Below, in pieces: positions 13,801-63,780 of a DNA stretch of 64,000 nt. Every line of letters begins with the position of its first letter. Within the stretch, counting starts at the first letter, position 1. Source of the DNA: Takakia lepidozioides (Eukaryota > Plantae > Bryophyta); the NCBI GenBank assembly GCA_030704615.1, contig CM060733.1, positions 19,654,001 through 19,718,000 on the forward strand. Direction: 5' to 3'. A program made the position numbers and the translations under genes. The notes under the pieces were generated by a model that was given only the letters and a program-made list of their open reading frames with translations, had not been told where the DNA came from and searched no databases.

Positions 13801-13900
13801 CTCCAAACCAAAACAGACATCCCCGGATACCAGCCTAGGCCCATAACATCACCAACTATCCCACCCCCACTGCACCCACACAGCCTCACCTGAACCTCAC
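10830..13900 (+). mobile_element. Probable 5' region (UTR/ORF1-like) of the adjacent LINE, with internal repeats and an inverted block
   Basis: Same strong C/A-rich strand bias as LINE ORF2 and contiguous with it; 69-bp and 255-bp in-frame duplications; the bias flips at ~12370-13660. No recognisable protein domain. Confidence 0.45.
11598..12105 (+). repeat. Diverged tandem duplication, period 255 bp (85 codons)
   Basis: ttaatcaaccccccatacacaaggcta... at 11598 and 11853; NQPPIHKA...PVTT.KR.V repeated in ORF 11234-12019. Confidence 0.88.
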
Positions 13901-19478: not shown

Positions 19479-20545
19479 ATTCATCCAAGAGGGCCGGATT
19501 TCAAGCTCAAGATTACCTATGATACCATGTGGATCCATTACTGCAAAAAACCTGCATGGGTAGATGGTCAACTGGAAGTCGCAGTAGCGGCGACACAATT
19601 TGATAAAACCAGGCACTGCTAATGAAGGTACATTCTTCAACACATTTCACCCTGTTTTTCCTTCTTATCAGAATCGGCCCTAAAATTCCATGTTGAGTTC
19701 TGCAAGTTAGCTGGTTAAGTGAATCTTTGATAGTTTGCAGTGACTTTGACATGATACTGCCAACGCGGCAACAGGAAAGTATCCAAAAACATGTAACAGA
19801 GATGAGGAGTAGCTGTGGAATGAATACTTTTCTGATCCCAGTCAATGGTGGGACAACCAATGCCTGTTACATTACAGAGGGTATCAGGTGCAATTCAGCA
19901 TAGGAACTAGTGTGATAAACTGAGTTGGGTATTTCCTAGAACAAATATAGGCTGTCATTATTAGCTGCAAGACAAGGATGTATGCATGATTTGTACAGAG
20001 GCAGTGATAGTTGAAGGGGCTAGAGTGTGGCTCCAGATTCATCCAAGAGGGCCAGATTTCAAGCACAAGATTACCTATGATTCCCTGTGGATCAATAGCT
20101 ACAAAAAACCTGCATGGGTAGATGGTCGACTAAAGGCAAGTGCTGCAGCTGATAAAATTAGGCACTTCAACCATGACCACAACTTCTGAAAGAGGATCAA
20201 GAGAGGGAGTCCACAATGCCTCTTTTGGCACTTCTGGGCATGTGAAGATGCTTTGTGAGGCAGACAGACTGAAAGAGGCTCTACAGACTATAAACCAAGG
20301 AGGCATTTCAGCAGATTCAGATACGTATGTCTCTCTCTTGCTTAAGTGCATCAAGACGAAAGGTCTCAGATCAAATGATGGGGGAAGGGGTGAAACCCAA
20401 CCACATCACGTTTTTGTGCATGTGCAATACATGTGCAAGCCTGGCACCCCTGGAAAAGGCAAAGAGGTGCATGGTTGCATCGCGAAAGCTGGAATTGTAC
20501 CAGATGTAATTCTGAACAATACCCTCGTGGACATGTATGCTAGTA
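19479..20545 (+). pseudogene. Decayed paralogue of the PDF-motif + PLS-PPR gene
   Basis: cag|IHPRGPDFKLKITYDTMW...PAWV (19479); RDEE*LWNEYFSDPSQWWDN (~19800-19858, in-frame TAG); cag|IHPRGPDFKHKITYDSLW...PAWV (20037); frameshift into LCEADRLKEAL...DTYVSLL..C; deletion; GVKPNHITF...GKEVH..IAKAGIVPD.ILNNTLVDMYA; then truncated. Confidence 0.88.
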
Positions 20546-40750: not shown

Positions 40751-43700
40751 ATAGATCCATCTCTAATTTGGCAAGGACCCTCGACCTCGCGGATATTAAT
40801 AAAAGCTAATAAGAACGGCCCAACACACTGGTGGACACCTTTGTGACACCAGTCCGTGGATTGAACCCACAACCAGGTCACGTGAAGGTATGTGGCCATC
40901 ACTAGGCTACAACTTGGTTGTCAACTGGTTGTGGATATAGCAGCTGCAGCTGCAGGGGAGTGTTGCAAGTATAATTGCTGATTTTGAGTCCTGCAATAAC
41001 TGGTGTTCTGGATCGCTTATTTATCCTTCAAACCTGTCATGAAGTTTTATGAGGTGTGGCATACGACCTCCACAGTTCTTGAAAGAAAATCCCCTAGAGA
41101 TTATGCTTGTAGTAGAGAGGGAGCGAAGACAGGATGACGATGTCAAGGTTACCATTCTATGATCAGAAGCCAAGCCTCACCCATGAGGGAGCAAGTTGTG
41201 TGGGTACTAAGTAATGTTTGTAGGATAAATTTATCCTGAAGCCAAGTTGCATTGACAAGGTGTTCACTTAGCTCTTTTCATATACATTCATGAAGGAAGG
41301 ATAGATACTTCATCGACAAAATGAAACATAGATGATGAACTCTAGCTAGAGATTACGATCTGGACAGATAGAGGGTCAAAATGTAGGTGTTCAAAACTCC
41401 TATTCTCCACTCCTAGCTGCAACTTACCGAGTGCGGAGTACAAAGCATTGAGAAATTTTCTGTATTACCTGAGCTGGACTCTATTTCCTACCAACTTTAC
41501 GTCTCTGGTGCGGTGATGTTCAAGTTGTCTCCTGCTGAAAATTATTAACAAGTAAATGTATGGATGGTGCCCCTAGTTAATAATGTGGTTGGATGCTATT
41601 CTGGAAGGAAGAAAGAGGGAAGAAATATCTATAAAACTGGCTGGCGATGGGGACATCCCTCTTTGTCGCTGAGCAGCCTACTCAACATTTTGTTAGGGGC
41701 CCACTGGTGTACGTACTTTGCATTGGCGATAAGATAACTCAGCCTCTCACTCGCACTACCTCATCCACTCAAAATATTTGAAGTTTTTTTTTTTGCTTTG
41801 GTTTATAGTTATACATGCGTTATGCCTGGAATACACGACAACTTTCGATGTGGACATGTTGTGTAGAAAACATTTGCCTCATCAGCTTGGTCATCAAGAA
41901 AGCCTGCAAGGTGCTTTACTTTATAACATGAAAGTGAGTTACACCAGCTGGAAGTACAGTTAAGAATTGTGTCAAGCTCTCTCTCGCAAACGGAGGAGTG
42001 CAACTGCTAAGAAGCTGCGGTGGAAGAGGTTACATGATGCCTTTCACGCAAATCACCTAGAAGTAAAACTAACTCGATCCGTGCCGATCTGTTCTGAATT
42101 CCCAACTCTGAATGGCTTCAACAGTACCGTATGCAGCACCCGGAATACGCAGTAGCAAGCCGTTGAGGAGCCCGCGTTCATATCTGAGAATGTTTTTAGA
42201 GCTGCCCGGGCAAGACAGTGGAACGAATGTGTGTTCGAAACGCCGCGCGTAAGAATCCATGGATGAATTAAAAAAGGAAATGGAAAGTATGATGGCCCAC
42301 TGAAAGAGCCACAAGGGGTCCGTCGAAATTATAGCGAAAGGAGGAAAGGAGGGCACACCATAAATTAGTTGGAGGGCTGTCGGGACCCGTGATGTTGAAT
42401 GGGCCCGTCCGTTCGCGGGGCCCTGCCTGCCACCACAGCTGCGTCCATCCACATCACCGCTCTCCTGCGATGTCAACCTCACTCACGGTGTTATCACTAT
42501 AATTTCAGTTACCGGCCTATTTTCCGGGTCCGACACGTGTGTGCCGCAGATTGCACTCAGTGAGGAGAATATTTAATATTATATTAGTAGATATAATAAT
42601 ATTATTAAATACTATATTATATTACTTCGGGAGGCGCCTCGGAAGTATGGACGGCCACGATGCACATGTCGCTATCACCATCGCAGGGCTGCAGTAAGGC
42701 AGGTTTCACCTTTGTTACAACATCAGACACGTGCAAGCGTCCGTATGGGTGCAGAGAAGTCAATCTTGGTTGTTTTTACTGGAGAGCATTTGGTGGCAGT
42801 GTATATTGCTGCGGCAGGGTCCCTCGTCGTCTGTATGTTCTCTCTGTCTCTCTCATTTCCTTCTGCGATGGAGCGCGAGTGAGTTCACAGGCTGTGCAGG
42901 CCTTCGGAGGAGTAGAGCATTAGAGTCGTTTGTTGATGCAGGGTGCGCTCTCTCTCATATTCACGGGGAGCCTCATATTGGCGCAGACAGGTGGCTTTAC
43001 TGCTCTCTCGCCTCATGTCAGTTAGAGTATCTGTCTCTCTCTTTCATTCCCTTTTCTCTCCGTCTCATTCATTCTTTGTTGAGTCAATTATTTCCTGTTG
43101 TGATAGATGAAAGGTGGAGCGACAGAGTGTGCTGGCTCTACAGGCCGGCTTCTCAGCAGTAGATCAGTAGTTTTAGGTGGTGGGGTGCTTTCGTACCATC
43201 GTACGAAGAGAAATGAAATGGTTCTTTATGACGTCCGCGGAAAGCTCATACAGCTTATGGGACAAAATGGAAAGAAAAAAATGAGAGAAAACAGGAAACC
43301 AGAGTCAGAGACAAGAACTATTGTTCAAGTGATGGTCTAAGGGCAAATGCCTCGTGCAGGTAGGCTGCCAAGCATTTCTGATCTTCATAGTGAAAGACCT
43401 CAGTGAGAGATTGGGTTCCACTGAATAGACAATGGACTTCCCACGGATCTCATAGTATAGAGGGCAGTAGAAGAAGAAGTGTTCTTCAGTTTCAATTTCC
43501 TGGGTGCGCCCTGTGCAAGCTGGACAGAGGCGGGAAGAGAGTGACGTTAATGTCCAGTGGCTCGCTCTCCCTCATGTCACTAGAAGCGTCTGTCTGCCTA
43601 GAGCTCTCATTTTTTCTTGCTGCCTCTTTCTGGGTAGAGTGTAGTGTAGAGTGAAATGTGAGCGTTTGCTAGTGCTGTAGGAATATATTATTATTAATTT

Positions 43701-45083
43701 CCTCGTTTAGGAACCTTGTAACACTTGGAGTGGCTTCTATGCAGCTGGCCCTCTCATAGTAGTAGTGTGACAAGCTGTTTGTCCGTCTTAACTTCAATTC
43801 CTCAAAGTACTTAGGAGGAGCGGTGTAGTAATTTCAGTGGCTCTATTGTATGTTCACTCCCTCAGGTCACTAGAGCGGAGGTGGCTCAACACTGGTGCAG
43901 TCCAATTCAGTAAAAGTGCAGCAGTTGTATCTGTCTCCGCTATCTTACACCACCTAGAGGAGGGCGATGGTGTAGTTCTGTAATAGATTTTCAAGTGCTG
44001 ATCTCTTCTTCTTCAACTCACCGCCAAAAGTTGTGGTGACCTTCTGTAAGTCCTATCACCTTATGCTCTAGGTTTAACAGTAAAAGAGAGTCATGTGATT
44101 CGTAGTTCTTTTCAGACCGAAATTTGAGTTTTAATGCATCTATAAGCAGAGCTGCTGCCTCAAGGCTCAGGGCCAGATGTAAGCTGCCTCACTGCAGTAC
44201 ACCAAGTATATATGTAGGAATGGGAGTCCTATACGTATTTTTTGCTAGTGCTACTCCATGATATATGAGCCTCCATGGTCTACCTATAGGGAAGATTGAG
44301 TGGTCTGCATAAAATCTCACAAGTAATTGTGTTGTTGTAGAGCCATGTAGCCTTGTCGAAATCACCTTCCAGTGTTTTGTCCAGTGATTCACTGGACCTA
44401 TAGATTCTGAAATCTGGGAGGCCTCTGTCACTTAGGACTTAGGAGGATATGGTTTCCAGCCTCAACCTCTCATATCTAAGAGACATGTTGACAACAATTT
44501 TTTTGTGTCTATGCCTAAAAGCAATCTTCCAGTTAGTGAGGATGCCACCTTTGGACTTTCCAAAACAGGCAACCTACGACTGTTGCTAGAATTCTAATTG
44601 ATAGGAATTCTAGATATTGGTAGCAGCTTGTTGTTGTTGAGGTGAGGGTCAACCAACCTTTGGAAGATATAATTCCGATAGCTTAGCACCTGCTGTCCAT
44701 TCGTATATATGAGCGATTATCAAAAGCCTACGCCATCTCTAAGGGCGTAGGTAGCTCTTTTCTGATCTCGATTGGAAGCTCGCTCAATAAATTCTTTCCT
44801 TGAGCAAACATGTAAGATTATTAAGTAGGTGACTGGACAGTGACTAGAGGACTTAAAACCTTAACTATTAACTGAACCGAGAGAACTTAAAACACTTGAG
44901 AGAGCCTAGGTAGGTTCATTAAACTAATTATAAGGCCAGGCCAGACTTTACCAGTGTGACCTCCAAATTACAATTCAAAGACAATTCACCAGAAGTAGTC
45001 CAAACCGACGGGATTGTCTCTTAAATATTTTGAATTGAAATGTGATGCATATCTTTTCCATTGGCAGGTCCTATTACTCTGCC

Positions 45084-48000
45084 ATGAATCTCAATGAGAC
45101 TCCTGCCGAGGACAAAGACTTACAGGATCAAGACGTTGTTGAAGGGACAGAGGATCTTCAAAGGTCTCCTACGGAAACTCTTTTGGATTCTAGAAGGGGA
45201 ACGATCCCATACTATCAGCTTTACCCGGTTTCCTTCCCTATTTCTTTCATACTTCCGGGAGGAACTAGATCTCACGATGACTCTGGGGAAACAGCCACAA
45301 GACTGTACTTATCTGGTGATCAGCATAGTACATACGGCAACCAGGCTCCAAACTCATCAAGGGCCATTAATGAGCTTCAGAACTCCATACCACTAGATGT
45401 GAACTTGGCTATTCCATTAAGCTTAATTAACATGCAAGATGAGCATCCGACTCAGCAAGTGGAACCATCAGCAACTCACCCATTTTTTGTGGCAAGAGAT
45501 ATTAGGTTGAACGTTTATGAAGGGGAGGACAATCAAGCTTGTCAAAATATCAGATTATTTGGACACACTTTTCACATCAATATGGAGGCACCTAGCATGG
45601 ATCAGGCAAAGGAAGAGATGAGACTTGCACAAGGATTTGACCTGAACTTGCATGAGCCCACCCAAGCTCAAGCTCAAGATGGAGGGATCAGAATATTTGG
45701 AAGCAGATTGGACATGGACATGGATCATGAGGCACCCGACATGCAAGCAGAGTCTTACCAGAGACAATCTAATTCGATTTCAACTCCACAAGCCATGACC
45801 CTGCGTTTGTTTCCCAGATTTCGCCCTATCAATTTGGGCGGAGCAGGTCCATCTATTCTTCTTCCAGTAGCTAATTATGAAGAGAAAAGTCTTGATTGTA
45901 TGGTGAATGAGGAGAGAAATATGACTCAATCTGAGATAGCAGAATCTGAATCTCCAAAATCCCGTATTGATCAGGCTCAAAATGAGTGGGAAAGAAGCGG
46001 CATTGCAGTTGAGCCAGCTCAATCTGGACCTAAAACAACTTCCGAGAAAGAAAACTTGGAAGAAGCCGATCTTGATGTAGGAGGTCTTATTTTAAGTGAA
46101 GAGAAACATAAACTTAGGGCCAAGGAGAAGGGTAAGGCCATACTGGTGGATGAAACCGCTGACGATGCAAGTATAAACCAGACTGCGAATTTAGCCTCCA
46201 CCAGCTATCTATGGACCCCTCAAACTGATCATAATTGGAACTCAACAAGGTCAAGAGATTATTCGCAGCTCACGGACCCGGGTACGACCCCTCCCAATAT
46301 TGATCAGATAATGTGGGAACAAGGGCCCCACAATCCTCCTGTTTCCAATAATTCAGATCTCCACGCCCAGAATTATAATCGGAACGTTCCTACAATAGAA
46401 CCGCTCCAAGAACCACGGAAATTTAAAGATCTTCACCGCAGATTGGGGCCTCCACCAAGGAGCTCCCGCTATAGGGGAGTCACTCACTACCGACGAACAT
46501 CTCGTTGGGAATCTCACATATGGTACGTGCCGTTACACATTCCTAATATGTACATGAAAATGATACCTTCAACTGGTTGACAAATGTGACTCAATATGTG
46601 TTAAAGTCTTACTCTTACTATGATGTTATACGTCTACATGGACACTTTGAATATTGAACTTACTTGAGTGGATAGTATGAATGCTTGAGTAGAATTTGGA
46701 AAGAGCTTTGTATATCAGACACGATCTCCTAGCTGAGGCAGATGGAATTTAGATGACCTAACTTTTGGCCATAATTTGGCAGGGGACTGGATGGCACGCA
46801 AATATACTTGGGTGAGTACTATTCATTTCAATACAATATAGGTCACATCTCAAATGTCGACATAGATGTGACATGGTCAAATAGAATGTTGGTTCTCCCA
46901 CCTGGGATAACTTGGAAGTATTTTTGTCTTGGGCTAGAGGGTTAGCTCTTTTCAATCCTCTACTCAAAAAATGTTTAATGTGTAATGTTTAGCCCAAGAT
47001 GTTGTAACTGCATGTAGTGCCTCGTATCTTGCAATCTCGGCTCTCTCATATCATGGATCATATGATTTGAACAACGTTTCTTCTAGACCCTAGTTTGAAG
47101 GCTAATATAACAGTTTGATCGATCTCACTATTACAGGTGCATCCACCACCAAAGAGGCAGCCGCCAGGTACGTATCCTTATTCAAGGGGTGGTCCCCTAG
47201 AAAGTACTTAAAATTGTTGAAACGGTTGCAAATCACATGGCATCTTAGGCAAGGGGAACATAGGACCTTAGGGATCAGGATCAAACGTAATTGCAAAGTA
47301 TACTCTTCATGTGCAGATTACTGTGAACGAATTAAAGAATCAGGGTTTAGCATCTGCTCTTAAGTTTTGCTTCCCAACTGTTTGAATATATCCATGTGTT
47401 TATTGAAAGAGATTATACTAATGCACATGATTAATTGGGTAAACTAAATCTTACACTTGCTGAAAATTTCTAGAGTGCATTGTTTCTAAACTTTAACTGA
47501 TTGCATGTTCAAACTTATACCTGAGTTAGGGCACACGACTTAGCGGCTATTTTGTTTCGGGGGCTAGGAGCCCAACTCAACTTCCCAAGAGAGGACTATA
47601 CCGATGAACTTCGCAAAGTATGTGTATATTCTAGCAGTCACAAACCTTTCATTTTGTGTCTCACAAAAAGTTGCTCGAATCAAGAGGAAAACACGTAAAT
47701 TCTAGTGCAAGGTACAAGCAATCCTCACTTGACACATTAAAGCTGATTCTGGGGTCTATTCCATTTTCCTCAGCTTTGAGCAATATTTCTTTTGCATTGA
47801 TGTTGTGAAGTGGCTCTAAGCTCATGGAAGATCAATGCCCCTCTATCTTTGTCTATATGTTTGTGCTCATAAGCATGTTAACAGTCATGTGAGTTGTCCC
47901 CTCTTTGAAGAATAATAGAACGGATACTTCATTGTAAAATGTTTATTGATCATGAGAAAATGGTTGTGGACAGCTGGAAAAGCTTTCACACAAGGCGGTT

Positions 48001-51000
48001 GTGCTTTATCTTAGGCGAGAGAGTAAAGGACCGGGCGCAATTGTTTTGTACCCTGGAGTGAAAATGGACCCTCACACTGGCAAATATTATGCAAATTACA
48101 AAGCAAACCCAAGAAGGAAAGAGTAAGTATTTTCAATTGAACTCATGACAACTTGTTGAGATGTATACATGTTCACTGTATAGATGTAGATTCCATGTGT
48201 TTTGCACTTGTAATGCTTCATGATTTCATAGCAGTGAGCAACATCGACGAACTTAGAACTTCATCCCTCTAGATTTTGTTTTTTGTTTCTACAGTTTAGT
48301 CCACACATCCAAGGACTTCGCATGAACTTGCACACTTACTCTCACAGATTCCACTTCATAATTCCATGTGTATCTGGTTCTCACTGTGTTTACAACTGCT
48401 TAAATTTCTTTATCAGGTCCACATGCTTGGGAATGTTTGACAGTGAGGAAGAAGCTGCTCAGTGAGATTCCTACACTTAAATACTCCATTCAAATGGCCA
48501 GACTGGCTCATTCCTAGGTGTTGCTTTGTTTGAAATGCCAAGTTTTTCTTGCTTTCATATCGAGGACGTAGGGGCATAGAGAGAGAATGTTCACCCCATT
48601 ATCCACTCTAGTTGGCGATTGTTATTAAAATATCATATGTATGGTGTGTCAGTGGTAATTAGCTTGAACTTGTTTCGCAATGTTTCTCTTACGTGATGAG
48701 TTAGGCAGAGCTTTGTAAGAATCTTCTTTGTTGTTTCTGCACAGTGCTATTGAAGTGGAAGCGGTCAGGCAAGGTAACAGGAATTTGGTTGACTTGATAT
48801 CTAACACCCGCTTGGTGCGAGGGATACCCTCTACTGCAGAGGAAGAAGAAATGGGTATGTTCTATATACGAATTACAGATGTCACGACATCAACTATTCA
48901 TAGCTTTAGCTTAATTCAAATTTATGCATGTATACAGTGTAAAATCCAGATAATTGACCTTCTTAGTATCTTCTATCTTCTATCTTCTATCTTCTTAATT
49001 GTTTCTACATGGCAAAGACTAGGCTCAAGATCATCTAGAGTATTGATACTTACGTGACCACTGAGGAATACTTAGGCAGCATGCTAATTAGAATGTGGTC
49101 CCCCTTGGTCGCGTAAAAGCGATCATATTCAAACGGACATAGCAATAAATTTGCCATATTGATCATAGGTCCACTATGAGAATCTATGTATTTACCTACC
49201 CCTGTTCACACTCCTTAAGTCTTGAGGACCTCTCCTCAAGACTTAACGGGAGGACCGCCTATGTCCAGCTTGCATAGGGCGCAGCCAGGAAATTGAAACT
49301 GAAGAACACTTCTTCTTTGACTGCCCTCTACTACGAGATCCGTGGGAGATTCCACTGTTTATTCAGTGGAACCCAATCTCTCACTGAAATCTTCCACTAT
49401 GAGGATAAAAAATGCTTGGCAGCATACCTGCACGAGGCCTTCACCCTTAGGCAATGGCTAGAACATTAGTTCTTATTCTTGTGGTTTTGTTTCCTCTCTC
49501 ATGTTTTCTTCCATTTTGTCTCATAAGCTCTATGAGCTTTCTGAGCTTTAAAGCACCATTTCATTTCATTTCATTTCTGTTCTCAGATATTGTATTACGT
49601 ATTCTAAAAGAAAGAGAGTCTCATTGTTATCTTAAAGGAACTGGATGGTGGGATTACATCTTACAGTATTCAGAGGGATTGTCTATTGTACATAGAATAC
49701 TCAGCTGATTTTACTCATTACTGCAACAGCTCCGCAACAATCTGATGTAACGGACGAGGACAATGAGGACAATTTTGACATACCGATCAGCCCCACGTCA
49801 GCTCGTGGGAAAAGACCTTGGAAAAAACCAAGAACATTGCTAGGTAAGTTGTCATTGATAAGTCCAGATTTGCAGTCTTTCTCATTGGTTTTCTGCATGT
49901 ACATAGGATGTACAGGAGATGTACATATGAATCACATTGGTTTGAACACATTACAGTGAAAATCTAAGGAACCAAGATAGTTGAGAAGAATGTATGATAT
50001 TAAATCTTGAAAATTTAACATAATTGCTGCAAGTTTGAGCCTTGAGGGTGTGCAGGTGTAGTATACAATCCTAGTGTTCCTAGCAGTTCTACCGCCCCCA
50101 AAAATCCTAGACTAGAGAAGCCTGCGAAAAAGTCTAAGCTGACGGGTATGTATCTCATATGTTTGCTATAAAAATGAACAGTTTGGAGGTTCAACAACTG
50201 GGTCACTTATGTTCAAATATCAGCTCTTCTAAATTTATGCTTATAAGAAAATTAGGAGTTTGCCTAAGTTCAAGTTTAATCAATTATTCAAACCAAGAAT
50301 CTATAGGATTCTGATTTTGTAGGAATGTGAGCGGTCTATTTCTTCCACGTAGATGTGGACAGTAGTGACCAATGACCACAGAGTAGTTACACAGATCGGT
50401 AGAAGATTTGAGAAGGCAGAAGAAGGCACATCTGAACAAACTAGTAGCTGAACAGTGCGTGATCTCATGGAATTCGGGAGTAGGACTTAAATACGTGCCC
50501 CTTCCTTGAGGATAGCAATAAAAATGTAGGAGTTATGAAGGAGGTCACCGATACCTACTCCCTACCTATTCCCTGATGACTATAATTTTTCCTTTGAGTG
50601 TGTGCAACTATGTTGTTAGTAATTAGGTTGTTCCGAAAGCTTATAATTTAACTCGTGCTATTAGCTGAATCTTGACTTGTCCAGGTGTGGAAGTGAATAT
50701 GCAAGCCAACCTAGAAACTCTACAAATTCCCTTGCCGCCATCCATGATAAGTAATACCCAAATAACGTCAGCTGCAGCTGCATCACACCTTATGCAAGGT
50801 ACAATGTTCTAGAGCATCTAGTTCAGTCTTGAAGCTACCACATGTGATTATACCGTAGACTTAAAAAATGCTAAGCTGTAAATGAAAATTAGCTAACAGA
50901 TCAAAGGCTGCAGAACCCTTTAATGTGCCTGCTAATTCCGAAGGGTTTGCGCATTTGGAGTCTCATAATTTAACTGATTGCTTGTATAGATGTGGAACTA

Positions 51001-52566: not shown

Positions 52567-53085
52567 TGCTGTCGTGCACCTAAGCATCGTGCCACAACAT
52601 ACATCGCTGTCCAACCACGCTTCCTAGCATATAGTCCTAGAAAGCCACACCACAATGATACGAAAATGATGAAAAGAGGAGAAACCACTCTATCACGTTA
52701 TATAAGTCAAGCCAATGACATCTTTGCTAAAGGACTCCACCTCTATCTCAAGTACTAGAGCTATGGCGGCGAGAGAGAGGCCTCATGAGGCTCGACTAGA
52801 AGAAGACGAGCCTGCCTACGTCTCACATGGAGATAACCTCCCCACGTCCCAAGTAAGGTTCGCCACCTCACTTGGCACATGGAACCAAATGAAGTCCCAA
52901 TGCCAACAAAATACAAATATAAATGTATAATGTCCTAATTAGTTAGAAATAACTATTTCTAACTAATCACAAACAAAACCATGACAGCTGTCGTGCACCT
53001 AAGCATCATGCCACAACATACATCGCTATCCAACCACACTTCCTAGCATATAGTCCTAGAAAGCCACACCACAATCGCCCCCCTA
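52567..53085 (-). repeat. Polypurine tract and candidate 3' LTR of the Gypsy element, with an ~88-bp direct repeat
   Basis: On - strand AGGGGGGCGAT then TGTGGTGTGG at 53073, with a possible end ...GTATCA at 52656. The first ~88 bp recur at 52567-52655. Internal 14-bp hairpin at ~52938-52967. Confidence 0.55.
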
Positions 53086-53089
53086 GCTG

Positions 53090-56000
53090 GTGATTAGGTC
53101 CCTCTAACACCAGATAGTTTGCAAGTATCCACCCCAATAAGATCATCGTTTGGTCTTCAATCGCACAAGTCCCAACACCTGAAGTCGATAGATCAAGAGG
53201 TCGGGTGCAAACGTAGCCCCATCGTTAGTCGCCTTCATGCAATCCATGATCTTCAGTTGAGTATCCATAGCATTGAAGCCCAGACCTTGGATCACTTGTC
53301 CGCCTCACCATTATCATGCCCACTACCTCTGTCCAAGGCATTGTGGACACAACCATTCTCCGATAGGAACCTCCTCAAGTGGTGGTGTCAAGCATCCCAT
53401 GTGCCACCCCCTTGAGCATTTGTCACACACCAACATGGTTGCGGCGCCACCAGCATACCCACATAGCATGCAACGCAACCCTACAAGTACCACTGCAAGG
53501 TTGGGATCTATCCTCTCATCCACATGTGGAAGGTGACATGGCGCACAATTGCGCACATGGTCCTTCCATACCATGCCATCTCGACCCTCCAGAATCAACA
53601 CTCCTGAAGGCAACACCTCCCTGACCCTTATAATCACACGTCCTGCTGTGACATCCAAGGTTGTAGGTGCTGTCTGCTGCAGATACACATAGTCCCCAGG
53701 GTAGAAACGCCGAACACTTGGCCGATATCCCCCTCCGCATATAGTGGCGTACCTCAATGTGTCTCGGTGTTGGACAATAGCAAGGTTCTCAAAAGCCATA
53801 GGCATGACTGTCTTGAACAACTCTGCCCGCTAGGCACATGCTTGTGTCCACACATTCGGATCATCAAGGTTGAGAACTATCGCCGCTTCCCTGCAAATAG
53901 ATGCAGGCAAATCCGGCTCTCGGCCGAAGAGAAGAAAATAAGATGAGAATGAGGCAAGTGAAGCTTGTTTGCTGAACCTATAGCCCATAGCTAGCCAAAG
54001 TAGCTAAAGGTCCCAATCTCCTAGGTGCGTCCCTTCTGCAAATCGTACTTGCACAAACCTCTCTTGACTGTCTGAACAACTCTCTCCGCCAAGCCATCAG
54101 CCTCGGGATGATCCCGAGAAGTAGTGCGGTGATCTATCAAGGCTTGCTCACACAAAACCTGAAACTCCCCCAAGAGCTCTCTCCCCTGGTCCGTGAGTGC
54201 CTCGGCTAGAGCACCAAAATGGCTAAGCACTCAATCTAAGAATGCATACGCAGCCCCCTCACTTGCCTTGTCAGGCAATACCACCAGTTCAATCAATTTG
54301 GAGAAGTGTTCCACCATCACTAACACATACTTGTTATGACGAATCGTCAGTGGCAATGGGCCTGCGATGTCAAGACTCCAACGATAGCCCAAACCCATAA
54401 TGGGTAAAGGATGCAATTGTGGAGTAGGGGCATTGAAAGAAGCCCGCACTTTATCACACACCATGCACCTTGCCACTAACTGTTGCACATCCGTGTGCAT
54501 GCCCCGCCACCAATACTGCCCTTGCAGCAAACTATGAGTGCGCCGCACCCCAAAATGTCTCTACTCTTCATGGGCATGGCGTACCAATCGCGCTCGTTGT
54601 GTTGGATGAGGCACAATCCTCACTCGTCCATCTTCCCATACCCGAAGTAGATTTGTCCCCTCCCACTTGAACCTCTTGGCTCGTTGTAGGACCCGATCCC
54701 TCTCCTTAGCAGTCACACTGGCTGCTGTCTCCCCGGTACAAAGGTATGCCAACACTGCTGCATCTTCATGCACATCCTTAGCACCACCAAACTCCTCACT
54801 AGTCTCTGGATCGTCATGCACGTTATCTACATGACCAATCGCATGGGATGAACTAGTTTGAGCTCCCATTGCTAGAATGCACAAAAAGGCCGATGCATGC
54901 CATCCTGGCACCATCTCCTCATCTATCTCACCATGCCACCGAGCTCCAGTATCATCATGCTCGCTCGTGCATGGATTACGACTCAATCCATCTGCATCCC
55001 GATTGACAATATCGGTTCGATGCACCACCTGGAAGTCGTACTCTTGAAGCATAAGTGCCCACCGTGCAAGCTTCCTTGTAAGTTTGTCTGACTCCATCAA
55101 CCACTTCAATGGTTGGTGTTCCGTGACAAGGGTGAAGAGATTGCCATAGAGGTAGCATCTGAAATGTGCCACTGCCCATACCGCAGTTAGACACCCCTCT
55201 TCATAGGAACTATACTTCGCCTCGGCATCATTGTTCGAGCGGCTAGCATATGCCACTACAAACTCCCTTCCCTCATCATCCACCTGTGTGAGCACTGCTC
55301 CAATCCCCAGCATATTCCAATCCGTATGTAGCTGGAAAGGCCGCCCCCGAATAAGCCGCCTCAGAATAGGTGCATAAGTCAATCGAGCCTTGAGTTCATC
55401 AAAGGCTTCCTCTCGCTCTTCCTCCCATTGCCACTCCTAACCCACCTTGGTCAACTTGATAAGAGCCTTTGCAATGCCAACACCACCTGAAGGTGTCTCT
55501 CATGCTCCTCAACCGTAGCACTAAAGACGATGATGTCATCAAAGTAGCACCGAGCAAAGTCTAGCCCCGCGAGAATCCTGTCCATGATCCTCTAAAACTC
55601 TGTAGGAGCATTCTTCAACCCAAATGGTAAGAACCGCCATTGGTACAAACAATCATTCCCATGTTGGTCAATCCCCCAGAATGCCGTCTTTTGCTTGTCA
55701 GCCTCTTTGATTGGCAACTGGTGGTAACCGGATCGCAAGTCCAATGTGCTAAACACCTTTGCATGCCCAATGGCATCAAAGATCTCCTCTGGAGTTGGCA
55801 TGGCATATCTATCGGACTTAGTCTGACGGTTCACAGGACGATAGTCCCCACACATCCTTCTTTCTGTCCAATTGCCATAGATATCCTTCTTAGCTGGCAT
55901 CACCGTTGCCGAGGCATACTCCCCGCCTGACAACTCAACCAATCCAGCTTCGAACAACTCCATAGTCCGTGACTGGATCAATGACCTTTCCATGTCACTG

Positions 56001-57680
56001 TACCGGTAGGGCCTTCGAAAGATTGGCGTGTCACTTGCCAAATCAATACGAATCTCCTGACCCTTCAAACCGAAAGCAAAGCAATTTCTATAAGCCCTTA
56101 GAAATCGCTAGATCCTTCGTCTCTCTCCTTTGATGACTGTAGGTCCAACATCTGGTTCCCAATTGTCCTCAGTGACTGCAACCTTGGGTACACCAGGCTT
56201 GGAGGTAGGAGACGAATCCTTTGGTTGCTAGATAGCAACTCATGCCCATACTTGCCACAATGCCCACACTGTAGTTGTGTAGGCTGTGCCTGTGCCGACC
56301 CTTTGCCTCTCTCCGGGCAATCTCTCTTAACATAGGGTCCTCCACAATCCCAACATGTCACACCCGACTGTTGTTGGTCTGAGAATGAAGGAAGTGACCT
56401 CTGCAATTGAGATCCTCTCTGTCCTTCCCTGGGCTTCGCCTGAGCCCCCTTGTTGCCTTGAGCACGTTGGGGTAGTGATTGTTGTTGGCTAGGAACCCCA
56501 CTTCGTTGTGTCTCCTTACCAAACCCCACTATGACCACTCGCTCCTCCACCATATTGAGCTCTATCCGTTCTGCCAGCAAAAACACATTTGCTAAGGTGG
56601 GTTGGTCCACTTGTAGGAGAGTTGCATCCCGCACCCTTCTCCTCAGCTCCTTGTCCAATATCATATACCAGAATTGGACTGCTTGAGCTTCCGTAACCCC
56701 TTGGGTCCTCCGCAATTTCTCCGTTCTTATCCCCTGGTAGTTTCTCGTTAACTCTTCGAAGAACTCCACAACTTGGTTAAAGGCAGGCACGGGTGCTGGT
56801 GCTGCAGCAGGAGCTTGAGTAGATTTCCCAACTCCGTCTTTACTTGTCCCACTACTAGTGCTTGCAGTTGGGGATGTTGGTGTAGCCACCTGGTGTCGCC
56901 GTTGCCCTTGTGCCTCTAGTGATGGAGATATAGTCAGGTGACCAATATTGTCGCCACTCCTCAATCTCTACCTCATTTCCCCGCCTAAACTCATAGTAGT
57001 CATTTATAGGCGGCCCCTCAAGGTGCTGAAATAGCCCCTTCCACGCCATAAAAGGCGTAAACAATTGTGGATTGTGCATCTGCTGCAAATCATACCAACT
57101 ATCAAACTCATGTATGAAATCATCAAGCTCGATGGTGCCCACAGCTCCAAAGTACCGACGTGGCCCCTTAGTAGCTCCATACATTTCCTCCATTGTATCC
57201 CACAACAATGGCACAGGAATGGCTTGCACCCCCAGCGAAAATCCTTCTAACTCTGAGTCTGAACCTTCCTCAGAAGACACTGAAGGTGAAGATAGCCTAA
57301 ATCGCACACCTCGTCTTGTATACCCACTAGTATCGCTGGTGCTCGTACCAGCACTCTCCTCAACAACTGGTGGCACCTCCGTGATGAAAACTCACACTCA
57401 AACCGGCTATCAGCTTGTCTCTAATCCCCCTTTCCACAAGGTAACCGGGTAGAGAACCTGTTGCGGCTTATGGTTTGGAATACTAGGTTCATATTCTGAA
57501 CCTGCACCTGCACCTGCATCCACCGCAGACACTCCTATGGTCTGCTGGTCATCAACCTAGCCTCACCATAAGAGAAACAATGATGGTCTGCTGGTCATCA
57601 CCCCAGCCTCACCACCGACAGCACGCTCTAGGATTGGCCAGCCACAATATTTCCGGCACAACCACCTATAAAAGCAAGCG
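53090..57680 (-). mobile_element. Decayed Ty3/Gypsy LTR retrotransposon: gag - (deletion) - RT - RNaseH - integrase - PHD finger
   Basis: gag with Zn knuckles CWDC...C and CGHCGKYGH (57376-56240); RT RMCGDYRPVN, FSTLDLRSGYHQ, LPFGLKNAP, YFDD (56068-55500); RNaseH FQLHTD...VVAYASR...KLARWAL; integrase YWWRGM..C..C, WSLD, TDQG, GLAER; PHD at 53472-53338. Many stops. Confidence 0.95.
53338..53472 (-). other. PHD finger (C4HC3) at the integrase C-terminus
   Basis: CMLC-x11-CDKC-x4-HMGC-LTPPLEEVPIGEWL-CPQC in ORF 53820-53323. Confidence 0.93.
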
Positions 57681-57689
57681 TCCAAACCA

Positions 57690-57997
57690 AATTAGCATGG
57701 CATTTTTGAAAGTCCAAGTCCACTCCTTGGGGTCGAATTGCAGTTCTGCCAGGGGTCTTCCCAGCACCCATAGGAAGGAACTCTCTGCCAGCCAGGTACC
57801 AGTAGGAATGGATGGATCTGGCTCGGGGTTCATGTCTTTTGTGGGGGAGCTCTAGTAGTAGACCCTTATCGGTGTATGAGCAAACAGTGGAATTCGTATC
57901 GAGTCTCTACTTTGAAGGGACAGGATCATTGTTATAGGGTTAATGTGGAATAAGAATCCAACGAAGCAATCATGTAGCCTGTCCTTGATAAAGAATA
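57690..57997 (-). mobile_element. Probable displaced 3' continuation of the LINE at 59283-61490
   Basis: Reads ...TWLAESSFLWVLGRPLAELQFDPKEWTW, resembling the post-RT region of bryophyte L1-type ORF2 (from memory); unrelated to DNMT or gag. Confidence 0.5.
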
Positions 57998-59282
57998 CTG
58001 ACGAGGGGAAGCTCATGAGTGTAAGCAAGGCCGCACGTGGCTGCCCTACTCGATTGACCACTGCTAGAGGTGGACGGTCATCATGTCGCACCCTTTGTGG
58101 TTGCCTCCCTTGGTCCAAAATGCCCTCAACCGTGAGATTAGGTGGCCGTTGAATGGAATCATATGCTCTCTTGAGCAGTTCTGGTGGTGCAAGATTGGTC
58201 CACCACAATCGAGGTCGATGCGCACGTGATCCCACCGCTGCTGCATCCAATAGCACCGCCGATCCAATCCAAGACCGCACCTGATGCACACTGGCCATAA
58301 CTCTGGCCCGAGAATCCCCCATAAGAGGAACATTTTCTAAGATATAGCCTAGAGGTTGCACTTGCCTCGTCTGCAAGTCCCGCAACACTCGCAACATCTC
58401 CTAAAACAAATGCGATCGTGCATCATACAAGCCATTCCCATGACATGCGGGAGAGTCTCCTTGGCAAGGCCATCCGGCTATCACCAAGTCAATGGAACCA
58501 TGCCGCTCCAAATCATCCGCCCCCAGCAAGGTAATGTCTGCTGGCAAGGCATTTTGATACCCTTGAATTGCTGAGAGAGGCAACAATTCAAGATACTGGT
58601 GTGTGAGCAAGGTAATGTGGCGCATGGAAATACGCCGAGCAATCTCATCCTTCTCCACATACAAGTACTTGGGTACTTTAATCCCTGCTTGCAACACTCC
58701 TGCAAACCCAGTGCTCATGCCTCCAAACAGGTCTAGCAAACAAATCCCTGAGTCAGGTGGTTGCCAGGTAATGGGCACTGTGTCCAAAGGAGCTAACTCA
58801 GGAGGTCCAGATGATGTCACTGAACTCCCCTCATTCATCAATGGAAAGGCCTCCTGCCATGCTTGGTGCACACACTCGTCTGCTACTCGATGCAAATTCC
58901 CAACCGTACCCCACAGTGGAATATGCACAGGCACATGAGGAAGCAAATCAGCCTTGCATACCAATTGTTTGTCCTCATCAGGTGATGGCCTATCATCTGC
59001 ATGGCTATTGCCCTCCAAGAGCTCACCACCCCTGAGAATGCAGCCAATGTGGGCATCATGTTCCTATGATCCACCGCTACATTCCCAATAAACCGCACTA
59101 GGAGCAGTGCACGTCGGCTATCTCCTGACTACCATTCCAGCCTGTAGGATGTCGTTTCCTCCCAAAAATCCAGAGTGAATCCTATGGGGTATAATACCGC
59201 CCCACCAACAAGCACATCATAAGACATCGCGTCCGTAACAATGGCTTTAGCTCTCATGACTGAGCCCTCCGTAGGATGATCA
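57998..59282 (-). pseudogene. Retropepsin C-terminal half followed by DNMT3-like C5-cytosine methyltransferase (retrotransposon-borne, disrupted)
   Basis: AIVTDAMSYDVLVGGAVLYPIGFTLDFW (protease C-half, ~59245-59160); frameshift near 59020; motif I LLDLFGGMSTG, II YLYVEKD, IV IDLVIAGWPCQG, GLYDARSHLF*EMLRVL, VI YILENV, VIII LLDAAAVGSRAHRPRLWWTNL. Truncated before motifs IX-X. Confidence 0.92.
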
Positions 59283-61490
59283 GAAGACCAGAAGTTGGTG
59301 TTGGGTTTAACATGACCTGCTTGAAGAGTTGGGATCCAGGTAGAGGGGATGGAGTCTTTAACGATTTGGTAACCATGATATAGTTTGGCCCTTCCTACTT
59401 TGAGAACTAAGTGTTCGGGCTCATGAAAGCCCCGGCTGTTCCATAAATCATTAACTTGGCTGATACCCTTCCTGTCCCAGAAAGACCAGCGATGCGCCTG
59501 CGATTTTTGCGTGAGAGAGGGGGGTTGTCATTCAAGAAGATGTGTTGTCTCAGTATTTCCTCATGGCTCTATGGTTCCGATTTTTTGAGGAAGGGTCTCA
59601 ATCTCCCCCAGGCTTGCCATATAGAAGACCATAGAGATGATCCAGGCAATTTAAGTCTGAAGCCTTGAAACACCCACCTAAAGGAGGGGTTCCACTGGGA
59701 GTTTTTGAGGGGGGACGAAGCCTGATTGTGTCCTGCCACCAAGAATTTCCACCAACCCCCCTCCGGACCGAAGAATCTGGGCAACCATTTACCTAGCAGT
59801 GCTGATATTTGCGTGTCTGGGTCTATAAGGCCCAGCCCCCCCCCCATTTTTTTGGGGAGACAGATCTGCTTCCACGATACCTGCGGTCTTTTGCGATTCA
59901 AGGAGCTGGTTTGTGCTCCTCAAACAAAGTTCCTGAGAAGAGCTCTGATCTGTTTGGTTTGTGAAGAGTTGGGCCTCCAAGAGGATGAGAAGAACCAAAT
60001 CCCTGCCGAGTGGATCTGATTTACTGCTAGCACCCTACCAGTTATTGAAAGGTGTTTGGAACCCCAGAAGGTAAGTTTTTTTTTCAATTTCGCTAGAGTG
60101 GGTGCAAAGCGTTGCTCATCCGTGAGGTTCACTCCATAAGTATAGCCCAGGTAGGTCGTTGACTGACCAGGTCTCAACCATGAGAGGCCCAGATTTGATC
60201 CCCAGGTAGGGTCTGTCCCTATCGTGGATCTGGACAGATCCCCGGCCAGGATTGCACAAGTCTTGGCCCAATTAACCTTAAAACCGGAAGCCTAACATAA
60301 CGAGTCCAGTGTTTGAGAGGTGTTGTGAAGGTTTTCCGAGGAAGCTTGCAGCATGAGAAGAGTGTCGTCCACAAACATCGAGTCTTTGACTTGCGCTGGC
60401 TGGTTGGTATGATAATTGGAGACTTGAAGGCCTACAATGTCTGTGTTGTTTTCTAGCATGTATCCCAGGGAATCTGCGACGAAAAGAAATAGGAATGGAG
60501 CTAGGGGGCAGCCTTGCCTGACAGATCTCTGAAGGGGGAATGGTTTAGAGAGCTGGCCATTAATCATGACCCTACTAGATGAGTTCTGCAAAAGAATGCT
60601 AACCCACTGGCAAAACAATTCTGGAAGACCGACCTTAGTTAGGGTTCCTAGTAAGAACGACCATTCCACCCTATCAAAAGCCTTTTCAAAATCAAGAAGC
60701 AGCAAAGCTATAGCTTGCTCGGTTTGTAGGGCATAGTATGGAGCTTCCTGGGCTAGAAGAAGATTGTCCATAATGTAGCGACCTTTTATGAATCCTGTCT
60801 GGTTGGGCCTAATCAATTTAGGAAGTAGGGGTTGTAGTCTTAAAGCCAGAGCTTTGGCAATGATCTTATAGGCTACGTTTAAAAGGGTGATAGGTCTGTA
60901 GTTAGATATGTTCGTGCGGTCTCCTTTTTTGAAGAGCAGTGTTACCACTCCTTGAGACATAGAGGCAGGCATTCGCGCTATCAGGAAGATATGATTCGCC
61001 ATGGAGAGGAAATCTTTTGAGATATCCTTCTAGAGAGCCTTGTAAAACTCCACGGGCATTCCGTCCAGTCCCGGAGATTTGCCGTTATGCAGCTTGGAGA
61101 GAGCATTCTCGAGCTCCATGTCTGTGAATGGGCCTTCCAGGGAGGCAGCTAGCTCCTGGGTGAGCAATGTTGGAGTGGATTGAAGGCAGTGATTCTAATG
61201 GGGAGATGTTGCAGTGTGACCTCCGGAGAGACTACTAAATAAAGATTCAAAGTGTTTGCCTGCTAAGCTTGCCATGTGTTTGGGAGAAGAGGCGGATATA
61301 CCCGAAGGCTGGTCAATCAGTTCAGTGATGTTTTGAGAAGCTCTCCGCAGCTTGGATTTTTTGAAGAAATATTTGGTCATCCTTTCCCCTTTTGTAGACC
61401 AGTTTATGCCTGCCTGAAGTTTGAGTTTTTGTTCATGGGTAGACTGAAGAATCTCAAGGCTTTCCTTGGCTAGGAGGTAGGTCATGTATG
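59283..61490 (-). mobile_element. Decayed L1/Tx1-type LINE ORF2 (RT region), 5' truncated
   Basis: W..KGERMTKYFF, GKSPGLDGMPVEFY, NYRPITLLNVAYKIIAK, LDFEKAFDRV, VRQGCPLAPFLF, FVDDT, YLG, LSITGRV, VSWKQICLPK..GGLGL. In-frame stops. Confidence 0.94.
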
Positions 61491-61740
61491 TGTGCTCATC
61501 ACATCTAGTGGATTCTACTCTAGATTGACATGCTGAAAGACATTTATGAATTTATTTATACATATTTTACACTTCCAAAAGATCAAACAGAAAATATGCT
61601 TAAAACTATCTATTGCAATAAGATAGACATATTATTTTCAAATTCTGTGAATAATTTTATAGTATATGGATTTTTTAGTATTTCTAATAATACAAACATA
61701 TTTTCAGGCAATAAACAAAATATCTATCAAATCCATATGA

Positions 61741-61984: not shown

Positions 61985-63780
61985 ATTGTGCCACGTGGTG
62001 CAACAAGAAGAGGCTCCGCCAAATAAATCAAAAAATAAATAAAATATAAGTTAACAAAAATTAAAAAGAATGGAGTTTTAAATTGTGCCACATAGTGCAG
62101 TGTGGCACTCCGCATAATGTTGCCACGTGGCTCAGCGCGAATAGGCGCAGCCAGGAAAATATGTTTTACATTTATTTTTTTTAAAAAAGAAAATGAACTA
62201 TTTTCTATCGCTGGCGGCGCCCCGCGAGTCCGCCACGTGGTTCAAAGCAAAATAGGCGCCGCCCAAAAGTTATCATTAATTAATTAATTAATTAATTTTA
62301 AAAAAAATAGAAAAATAAAAACCAAAACGATTTTCTATCACTGGCACATGGAGGTTCTACGCAGCGGGAAGCGGACAGGCGCCTGCTACAAAAAATAAAA
62401 AATAAAAATAAAAAAGAAATATATATATATAAAGAGAAACCAAAATAATTTTCTATTGCATGACGGTGCCGTCCGATCTCGCCAAGGGGCGGGACGTGGA
62501 CAGGCGCCGCCCGAAAAAGGTCAAAATAAAATAAAATAAAATAAAGAATAAACCAAACCCATGTGGCTACGACATGTGATTCTGTCACATGGCGCGACGG
62601 GGACAGGGCGCCGCCATATATATATGAAGAAATCTTGGTTTGTGGATGGGACGTTGGTTGCGTCCATAATGGTGCACACATGACATACCATTATGGTGCT
62701 CCATAACTATGTTTTTTCTAAAATTATGTAAGAGGGTCACCCCATATGTATACTCATTTGCAACCGCCGTCTAAACTTGGAGTGGAGAGCAAACTGGAGT
62801 ATTGGCGCGAATGTCAACAACAAGTGTGCTTTCAGGTTAGTATTGGGGGTGTTGCGTACGCAACAGCTTGTAATTTGCATTGTGGATTTTTATTGTTTTG
62901 TGTTATGTCGTTATACGTTATTGCAATAAGGAGAATATAAAAAAGGAAGAAAGAACATCGTCGAACATATGGGTGTAGCATGCGCAACACTCCTAGTCAA
63001 ATGAAAAATTAATAGGAGTATAAGAGTAGTTATAATTTATAAATACATAAATTAAAAAAAACCCAAAAAAAAAACCAAAACGATTTTCTATGATTGGCGC
63101 ATGGCGGTTCCACCCAGCGGGGACGCAGACAGGCGCCGCCCGAGATTAAAATTTTAAATTTTAAAATTTATAATAATAATAATAATAAACCATGTGGCTG
63201 CACCACTTGATTCTGCCACATGGCGCGACGGGACAGGCGCCGCCATATATATGAAAAGATCTTGGTTTGTGGATGGGACGTTGGCTGCGTCCATAATGAT
63301 ACACATACGACATATCATTATGGTGCGTACATTATGGTGCTCTATAATTGCGTTTTTTCTATAATTAATAGTGGTCATTCTTTTTTGGTTCCTATATAAG
63401 AGGGCCACTCCATATGTATGCTCATTTACAACCGCTGTCCAAACTTGGAGTGGAGAGCAAACTAGAGTACTGGCGCGAACGTCAACAACAAGTGTGCTTT
63501 CAGGTTAGAGTGGGGGTGTTGCATACGCAACAGCCTGTAATTTGCGTTGTGGATTTTTATTGTTTTGTATTATGTCGTTATACGTTATTGCAATAAAGAA
63601 AATATAAAAAGGGAAGAAAGAGCATCGTCGAACATATAGGTGTAGCATGCGCAACACCCCTTGTTAAATGAAAAATTAATAAGAATATAAGAGTAGTTAT
63701 AATTAATTAATTATTTATAAACAAACTCAAAACGATTCTCTATTTGGCATAAGGCAGTTCTGCGCGGCGGGATGCAGCAT
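61985..63780. repeat. AT-rich compound tandem repeat (~670-750 bp units, ~2 copies plus partial) with GC-rich GGCGCC/CCACGTGG subrepeats; probable non-autonomous transposon
   Basis: aaacttggagtggagagcaaact at 62773 and 63441 (period 668); aaacgattttctat...ggc block at ~62325, ~63078 and ~63730. Confidence 0.85.

Follow-up and report, generated by a model that had tools for sequence, protein, structure and literature searches.

A Ty3/Gypsy family that carries its own DNMT3-like C5-methyltransferase (MTase) is present in mosses and liverworts, which extends to these plants a kind of element so far described in algae. The window, i.e. the complete stretch of 64,000 nucleotides from Takakia lepidozioides analyzed here, contains two dead pieces of this multi-copy family, and its relatives display the order gag–protease (PR)–MTase–reverse transcriptase (RT)–RNase H (RH)–integrase (INT)–PHD finger. 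Since 2018 it has been an open question why a transposon should encode a transposon-silencing enzyme, one obstacle being that the hosts known for such elements, dinoflagellates and Klebsormidium, are difficult experimental organisms. Marchantia, a genetic model, contributes at least 14 annotated gene models to the family, so that the question can be tested there; these gene models may also be miscounted as host methyltransferases. As the family has no paired long terminal repeats (LTRs), standard LTR finders would likely miss it, and its two end forms suggest that it integrates in an unusual way.

Layout of the two pieces in the window

All features described herein lie on the minus strand, along which the order is LINE, PR-MTase, LINE, gag and RT-RH-INT-PHD. 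A degraded LINE, consisting of RT and C-terminal region (59285..61550; Pfam RVT_1 at 61029-60295, E 1e-30), hosts the PR-MTase piece (59283-57999) and continues behind it at 57702..57997, where contigs cover 57702-57917. The piece is thus situated upstream of gag, within the LINE and outside the gag-pol copy. It starts with the C-terminal half of a retropepsin-type protease of the Gypsy family (59027..59283; tblastn, 48% to residues 695-782 of Marchantia Mp_4g09160) and, after a frameshift near 59025, proceeds into the DNMT3-like C5-MTase (57999..58748), which comprises motifs I–VIII and part of the target-recognition region. Because contigs of sample S1 join 57997-58000 directly to 59285 and skip the piece, it is regarded as an insertion into the LINE; no contig bridging its assembled junctions was found among the matches listed. 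The piece is likely filler DNA captured in break repair. A LINE-MTase chimera as a family was rejected, since other LINE copies skip the PR-MTase piece.

The gag-pol copy begins with a leader, truncated at its 5' end, and a gag that contains zinc knuckles (56241..57701; tblastn match 57193-56242; contigs with loose ends at 56241), and the 5' repeat A1 has no match in it. The gag homology breaks off at 56242 and is directly followed by the pre-RT linker; hence, this copy lost PR and MTase by a deletion, which sets the 3' limit of the gag region. Downstream follow an in-frame stop, TAG CAA CCA, as a predicted readthrough signal ahead of RT (56222..56230; RT frame, CAR YYA consensus from PMC2754532), RT and RH with stops and internal deletions (54993..56107; Pfam RVT_1, RT_RNaseH), the integrase zinc finger and core, also with stops (54024..54560; Pfam Integrase_H2C2, rve), and the integrase C-terminal region with the PHD finger (53326..53829; Pfam PHD, E 8.5e-11). 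A polypurine tract (53076..53084) precedes the 3' split direct repeats (52570..53075), which are arranged as B1 (53075-52989), A2 (52986-52657) and B2 (52656-52570) and contain an 89-nt direct repeat of 97% identity. The B1/A2 junction forms the palindrome GACA-GC-TGTC, and B2 terminates in CA.

The initial annotation had assigned the MTase to the gag-pol element of the window. This assignment describes the family layout correctly, but not the placement in this copy, where the MTase is a displaced piece in a LINE. Its other observations on the window were borne out: the C5-MTase on the minus strand is real, it lies behind a retropepsin C-terminal half, it shares its strand with RT, RH, integrase and PHD finger, and the copy is dead by its stop, its frameshift and the loss of motifs IX–X. 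The window copy is therefore functionally uninteresting in itself. In run X1, summed contig depth was 74,000-194,000 in MTase bins, 150,000-540,000 in gag/pol bins and 400-1,000 in LINE bins, a pattern compatible with a high-copy family, although depth is no copy number. A PPR gene of the PLS-DYW type and a P450, both in the window, are land-plant markers.

The methyltransferase domain and its family

The window MTase exhibits the motifs LFGG (I), GWPCQ (IV, with the PC intact), ENV (VI) and RAHRPR (VIII) in non-permuted order, with the catalytic Cys codon at 58466-58464 and an in-frame TAG at 58403-58401. Motifs IX–X are absent from it. They are kept in most relatives, as judged from the Gly of GQAMD in 66 of 80 metagenome loci (13 loci are not covered there), and the SAM-binding motifs I and X are likewise retained in relatives. 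The domain is intronless, being collinear in the window and in the loci, as had been claimed initially. Homologs reach 67% identity (E 1e-109). Among solved structures, DNMT3A is the best match both by profile (E 2e-17) and by a fold search with a predicted model (pLDDT 58.6; E 6.5e-12); the profile scores are 66 bits for DNMT3A, 35-43 for DRM and 24-26 for HhaI/HaeIII. By sequence, phage MTases match equally well or better (28-31% over about 200 aa, E to 1e-15; phrog_116, E 8.5e-24). Pfam PF00145 weakly matches the N-terminal piece only (E 0.0027, below cut-off), and the Atlas feature search returned generic C5-MTase clusters.

Between diverged lineages, the MTase is under purifying selection. 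The dN/dS is 0.13 for the window against the loci (22 unsaturated pairs) and 0.20 for 157 pairs with dS>0.6, the deep dS values being near saturation, and rises to 0.59-0.75 among close, decayed copies. In close copies the MTase is under weaker constraint than RT, with 0.64 versus 0.38 at dS 0.3-0.6 and 0.59 versus 0.41 at dS 0.15-0.3. The catalytic Cys and the motif VI Glu are kept in 112/112 classified tree sequences, and the Cys in 79 of the 80 loci, a count that is partly circular because the scan pattern included WPCQ. Together with the motif VIII Arg, these residues are nearly invariant across sequences just 30-40% identical. The Pro preceding the Cys is replaced by Glu in 11/34 and 48/78 distant homologs.

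The order gag-PR-MTase-RT-RH-INT-PHD, postulated in the initial annotation together with persistence into embryophytes, is present in gene models of Marchantia, Sphagnum and Calypogeia and in metagenome loci. The complete set including zinc knuckles (ZK) occurs in 15/80 loci, some of which represent one locus present in two assemblies, and in locus L030 every domain that it contains lies in one frame. The 23 long homologs include 14 Marchantia gene models, one from Calypogeia and one from Sphagnum fallax. Unspliced Gag-PR-MTase proteins have 1230-1730 aa and terminate 54-172 residues past the MTase. In some algal-type relatives the MTase is continuous into RT without a stop or the domain is placed in Pol, and in chlorophyte elements the homologous domain lies between RH and INT. 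The DDE integrase and the order gag-PR-RT-RH-INT, as well as the polypurine tract, TG...CA ends and a short target duplication, identify the family as Ty3/Gypsy.

In the midpoint-rooted MTase tree, whose sequences do not include host DNMT3, DRM or a phage outgroup, the window MTase clades with bryophyte sequences (support 0.999) and lies on the same side as the Klebsormidium MTases (support 0.857). A small RT+RH tree of 10 sequences after filtering agrees with it. No vascular-plant, Physcomitrium or hornwort protein is named among the MTase homolog matches, which is weak evidence of absence, and viral contigs gave one weak match among 33 candidates. In runs X8 and X9, which are RNA only by conjecture, contigs cover 58628-59281 at <90% identity and stop short of the catalytic motif. 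CpG o/e is 0.51-0.56 in the element and 0.48 in the window, which says nothing on self-methylation.

That the window MTase is a one-off captured fragment of a host DNMT3 or part of a LINE-MTase element, as its location within a LINE and apart from gag-pol might suggest, is highly improbable. A Gypsy PR half is attached to it in the family spacing, other LINE copies are without the piece, it groups with Gypsy MTases in the tree, and DUF3444 is absent from 32/32 homologs scanned. One-off host capture, which the initial annotation had named as the outcome that would speak against it, was rejected on the bryophyte gene models and on the 75/80 MTase loci in which a further domain of the element shares the strand of the MTase (PR in 62, RT in 54).

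Stop codon, element ends and the proposed mechanism

An in-frame stop lies 33 codons ahead of the RT reference start in 50/53 loci, and the MTase thus closes the Gag-PR frame. The stop contexts are TAGCAACCC in 32 loci, TAACAACCC in 15 and single variants in 3, about 49 of these 50 loci being one close family; TAA is the stop in 16/50. The stop is followed by CAA, with CAA CCC in 47/53 loci. This commonest context departs from the CARYYA consensus for stop readthrough (PMC2754532) at the last base, and the consensus is matched fully only in the window, L030 and L032. Gene models running the MTase into RT (P0062, P0065, P0079, P0054) omit the stop-bearing stretch.

The ends differ from the paired LTRs presumed in the initial annotation, which were rejected: B lies upstream of A1 in 0/25 5' ends, and the 3' ends consist either of B-A-B or of a single B. 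The elements hence take the forms A...B-A-B or A...B with TG...CA termini. The layout A1...B1-A2-B2 is found in L046, L065 and L073, and the 3' repeat layout of the window recurs in these three loci as well as in L011 and L041. Among eight relatives with both ends, the 4-bp target duplication is exact in six, has one mismatch in one and an eroded end in another. No primer-binding site was evident past A1 on inspection by eye.

In the reading that we favor and consider rather probable, the first frame encodes Gag-protease-methyltransferase, and RT, RH, integrase and PHD finger, in frame past the conserved stop, would be translated by readthrough. The MTase would thereby be produced at Gag levels, presumably be packaged into the particle and, if active there, methylate the new cDNA before integration. 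From the stop ahead of RT, a Gag-level enzyme in the particle is predicted, which points to the cDNA as substrate; self-methylation by the family is our inference. The benefit may be a cDNA resembling host DNA or a quiet state pre-set at the new site. High expression is not required everywhere, given the algal-type relatives with a continuous MTase and RT or with the domain in Pol.

That Pol is translated from an RNA of its own, produced by splicing or by separate initiation, with the CAA past the stop being incidental, is unlikely. The ATG located two codons past the stop in the main family, the imperfect CARYYA match and the TAA in 16/50 loci would fit it, but this ATG is missing in the window and in L030, which favors readthrough over re-initiation, and both TAG CAA CC and the reading frame persist between families with synonymous sites near saturation. 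The domain could also serve the Gag particle by binding nucleic acids or modifying RNA, or divert host silencing factors as a decoy, in each case without methylating cDNA; the inactivity of the Klebsormidium domain in yeast, as given in excerpts of PMC5890265, the weaker constraint relative to RT in close copies and the change from PC to EC in many distant homologs point in this direction. The near invariance of the Cys, Glu and Arg of motifs IV, VI and VIII and the retention of the SAM-binding motifs argue against it, and we regard it as fairly unlikely. Quite improbable is an active MTase that targets chromatin at or after integration, either the insertion site or, as self-restraint, older copies in trans, with the integrase PHD finger as guide. 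Both options are discussed in the same excerpts, and the PHD finger at the integrase C terminus and the MTase directly ahead of integrase in chlorophyte-type elements would suit them; in this lineage, however, the stop leaves the MTase with Gag-PR, and the protease would likely separate it from integrase.

A wider picture, beyond the favored cDNA reading, is possible but rather doubtful: an ancient green-plant Gypsy lineage extending from chlorophytes to liverworts and mosses that loads each particle with hundreds of active enzymes of DNMT3-like type, encoded at the Gag-PR end ahead of a leaky stop, and that integrates from one-LTR and two-LTR circles opened by integrase at the internal palindrome (CA-GC-TG) instead of from linear ends. 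Part of the host methylome may, in this picture, have been written by its enzyme or derive from it. Circle opening at CA-GC-TG, if true, would account for both end forms.

Comparison with known systems

A literature search retrieved MTase-carrying Gypsy designs described in algae only and no land-plant report. Among retrotransposons with a C5-MTase, SymbioDIRS-Dnmt3 and SymbioLINE-Dnmt of Symbiodinium share this cargo with the window family and differ by a tyrosine-recombinase or LINE backbone; the excerpts of PMC5890265 describe them as independent captures and report de novo CG methylation in yeast by the related domains of SymbioDIRS-Dnmt3. EpiLTRs and DAM-LTRs (excerpts of bioRxiv 10.64898/2026.05.21.726589) are similar in being LTR elements that encode methyltransferases as well as chromatin readers; in contrast, their DNMT is sister to DNMT4 and an adenine MTase is carried. 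The same excerpts name "streptophytes (Gypsy-DNMT3)" and contain no mention of Marchantia, bryophyte or land plant. Chlamydomonas Gypsy elements with a PHD finger, such as Gypsy-7a_cRei, resemble the window family in this Gag-Pol feature, but have paired LTRs and no MTase in the figure legend (bioRxiv 10.1101/2022.06.16.496473). In non-flowering streptophytes, host DNMT3 enzymes such as PpDNMT3a/b possess the same DNMT3-type non-permuted catalytic domain; according to the excerpted text (Yaari et al. 2019, PMC6453930), they carry a C-terminal DUF3444, which the scanned window-family homologs lack, and host plant DNMT3 is a multi-exon gene, unlike the collinear MTase of the family.

The closest system is KnitGypsy-Dnmt3 of Klebsormidium nitens (de Mendoza et al. 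2018). Per the excerpts of PMC5890265, it resembles the bryophyte family in its Gypsy domains, its intronless non-permuted Dnmt3-like domain under purifying selection and, on the Klebsormidium side from a figure legend, its DIRS-like repeat layout. Its domain gave no methylation in yeast, a result that its authors call inconclusive. The host described here is a land plant, and the MTases are about 37% identical. The Klebsormidium domain is placed in the Pol ORF with RT, whereas a conserved stop lies in between in the bryophyte family; A...B forms without terminal redundancy and a 4-bp target duplication are not mentioned for KnitGypsy-Dnmt3 in these excerpts. The K. nitens protein KFL_013780020 is a Gag-ZK-PR-MTase that terminates 10 residues past the MTase, like the bryophyte proteins. 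Because the Gag-PR-MTase layout is common to both, the window family likely belongs to the KnitGypsy-Dnmt3 lineage (PMC5890265).

A rearranged copy in Takakia

A C5 cytosine methyltransferase (MTase) domain with the motifs LFGG, GWPCQ, ENV, and RAHRPR is encoded on the minus strand (58748–57999), behind the C-terminal half of a retropepsin-type protease (PR), as the initial annotation had read it. The copy is indeed dead: a TAG interrupts the MTase in frame (58403–58401, minus strand), a frameshift separates it from the PR half (near 59025, minus strand), and motifs IX–X are absent. Reverse transcriptase (RT), RNase H (RH), integrase (INT), and a PHD finger share its strand (56107–53326), as claimed. 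The MTase does not, however, lie inside this gag-pol copy, since the PR-MTase piece (59283–57999, minus strand) sits upstream of gag within a LINE, which spans 61550–59285, resumes at 57997–57702, and is followed by leader and gag (57701–56241) upstream of RT-RH-INT-PHD. Contigs from three runs of one sample connect 57997–58000 with 59285 via about 25 intervening nucleotides of other sequence; these joints skip the PR-MTase piece and, thus, reflect other LINE copies without the insertion. The gag match stops at 56242, the pre-RT linker follows immediately, and loose contig ends occur at 56241; hence, the gag-pol copy, whose 5′ end is missing, has deleted its PR and MTase. The MTase piece in the MTase tree and the pol piece in an RT tree of only 10 rows are both basal to the same relatives and are, thus, assigned to one family. 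The PR-MTase piece may have been captured as filler during break repair. The window copy is a real, dead, and rearranged copy of a widespread family.

The remainder of the window contains an intronless PLS-E-DYW PPR gene (5509–8778, plus strand), an organellar RNA-editing factor with very regular 303-nt repeats, a fragment of a PPR paralog (near 19700–20560), and an intronless cytochrome P450 (38432–40192, plus strand; Pfam p450). The PPR gene and the P450 mark the host as a land plant. A second degraded LINE comprises endonuclease and RT (13894–16736, plus strand). Frames at 17119–19061 (minus strand), which resemble a SWIM zinc finger only weakly (E 0.006), are likely a MULE-type transposase relic. 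Inverted repeat arms (43240–43533 and 49255–49541; 83–93%, ∼6 kb apart) enclose a gene at 45039–46580, whose frame end resembles what we take to be an AP2 domain start; Pfam gave no hit in this frame. An AT-rich tandem duplication with units of ∼630–750 nt lies at 62300–63711.

Domain order, range, and phylogeny

The window MTase matches 55 proteins of similar length (named are three from Calypogeia, two from Marchantia, three from Sphagnum, and one from Riccia) and 23 longer ones, including 14 from Marchantia and one each from Calypogeia and Sphagnum fallax. Marchantia layouts are Gag-zinc knuckle-PR-MTase (Mp_4g09160) and PR-MTase-RT-RH (MARPO_0091s0058). A metagenome scan led from 207 candidates over 129 coding matches to 80 loci, several being one locus in two assemblies and all chosen by MTase, so that MTase-less copies are uncounted. 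Another element domain accompanies the MTase on its strand in 75 loci, the other five being contigs of 1.1–2.2 kb; PR occurs in 62 and RT in 54. With the full order gag-PR-MTase-RT-RH-INT-PHD in 15/80 loci and homologs in Marchantia, Calypogeia, and Sphagnum, the proposed persistence of this family into embryophytes is supported. Nearly all metagenome copies are decayed; their stops chiefly replace Gln, Arg, and Trp, the pattern that methylated cytosine is expected to leave upon deamination.

A profile search yielded 110 long proteins. Among them, the layout is Gag-PR-MTase in Klebsormidium nitens, with 10 residues left behind the domain, and Gag-PR-MTase-RT in Closterium; in two chlorophytes, Chromochloris and Monoraphidium, the MTase domain follows RNase H. 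A large Gypsy Pol group (proteins P0155, P0197, P0076–P0078, and others, with Chromochloris and Monoraphidium named) has a homologous MTase downstream of RNase H and ahead of integrase, in which EC often replaces PC; this arrangement was not found in the literature searched. A representative library contributed 378 proteins at E<1e-30; among the best 150, 139 are new (75 RH-MTase-INT, 15 PR-MTase, and 49 unclassified). The MTase tree (FastTree, midpoint-rooted) comprises 148 sequences picked for coverage and 319 columns, with no host DNMT3 or DRM included. Herein, the window MTase clusters with Marchantia, Sphagnum, and Calypogeia (support 0.999), all but two PR-MTase types lie on the Klebsormidium and Closterium side (0.857), and every RH-MTase-INT type falls on the opposite side.

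Element ends and the stop before RT

Paired LTRs, anticipated around PR-DNMT-RT ORFs, were not borne out, with block B upstream of block A in 0/25 5′ ends examined. Elements start with the 340-nt block A (TGTCATG) and finish with block B (87–115 nt), which begins after the polypurine tract and terminates in CGACA. The 3′ end is B alone in 11 loci and B-A-B in six of 16 with sufficient flank, the window among these six. Six of eight relatives having both ends exhibit an exact 4-bp target duplication, seen with both end forms. Several full-length A...B elements (loci L019, L022, L025, L032, L034, L053, and others) lack terminal redundancy, yet are bounded by TG...CA and flanked by 4-bp target duplications. 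B meets A (B|A) in a palindrome, CA-GC-TG. If B-A is the true LTR, A...B could represent a circle with one LTR and A...B-A-B a circle with two, each opened at B|A; A...B could arise equally well if the two B copies recombined.

An in-frame stop lies 33 codons upstream of RT in 50/53 loci covering the RT N terminus, in the contexts TAGCAACCC (32), TAACAACCC (15), and TAGCAACCA, TAACAACCA, and TAGCAACTC (one each). The other three are out of register, deleted, or, in the divergent locus L076, accompanied by a nearby TAG TAG CCA; the window has TAG CAA CCA in the RT frame (56230–56222, minus strand). The tobacco mosaic virus readthrough signal is CAR YYA after UAG, ∼10% efficient (PMC2754532, in part). 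Unspliced Gag-PR-MTase proteins terminate 54–172 residues past the MTase, and gene models linking MTase to RT leave out the stop-bearing stretch. Judged from sequence, Pol would be made by stop readthrough. Against this, the commonest context departs from CAR YYA at the sixth base, most of the loci are one close family, and an ATG lies two codons past the stop in the main family (absent in the window and locus L030). Production of Pol from a separate message, which concerns the stop only, is considered unlikely.

The enzyme and its possible role

The nearest solved proteins are DNMT3A/B/C, next DRM, and next bacterial enzymes; the structure predicted for a relative (P0002, pLDDT 58.6) best matches DNMT3A. 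Phage MTases match the family by sequence at a similar level, so that the DNMT3-like assignment is tentative and the donor may have been eukaryotic or prokaryotic. DUF3444, the C-terminal mark of host plant DNMT3 enzymes, was absent from the 32 homologs scanned. All 112 classified tree sequences (36 of 148 being unclassified and uncounted) retain the catalytic Cys and the Glu of motif VI; in 59 of these 112, Glu replaces the Pro that precedes the catalytic Cys. Between diverged lineages, where saturation is near, MTase dN/dS is 0.13 and 0.20; among close copies, it is 0.59–0.75 and exceeds that of RT (0.38–0.62). In yeast, the Klebsormidium domain gave no methylation, a result that its authors did not regard as decisive, and those of SymbioDIRS-Dnmt3, the Symbiodinium DIRS counterpart, were active (PMC5890265, in part). 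The most likely route, given moderate confidence, is that Gag-PR-MTase would be the abundant product, Pol would arise by readthrough, the protease would release the MTase within the particle, and the MTase would methylate cDNA during its synthesis. That the MTase is a non-catalytic module appears doubtful, and that it modifies chromatin where the element inserts, rather improbable.

The literature searched, which excludes most subscription journals and the main supplement of PMC5890265 (which could bear on domain order and range), describes such elements in neither land plants nor chlorophytes, and mentions neither the stop before RT nor the end forms A...B and A...B-A-B. The covered parts of PMC6453930, PMC10952607, PMC9477723, PMC11982613, and bioRxiv 10.1101/2022.06.16.496473 report no land-plant or chlorophyte elements of the Gypsy-Dnmt3 kind. 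PMC12344493 and bioRxiv 10.64898/2026.05.21.726589, apart from their supplements, mention streptophytes and leave land plants unnamed; PMC5784723, as far as covered, lists five Marchantia DNMTs, none of the Gypsy-MTase kind. KnitGypsy-Dnmt3 of Klebsormidium nitens combines DIRS-like repeats with Gypsy domains, according to the Figure 4c legend of PMC5890265. The present family is a new land-plant addition to the Gypsy-Dnmt3 elements, with two features of note: a putatively leaky stop and split or absent terminal repeats.
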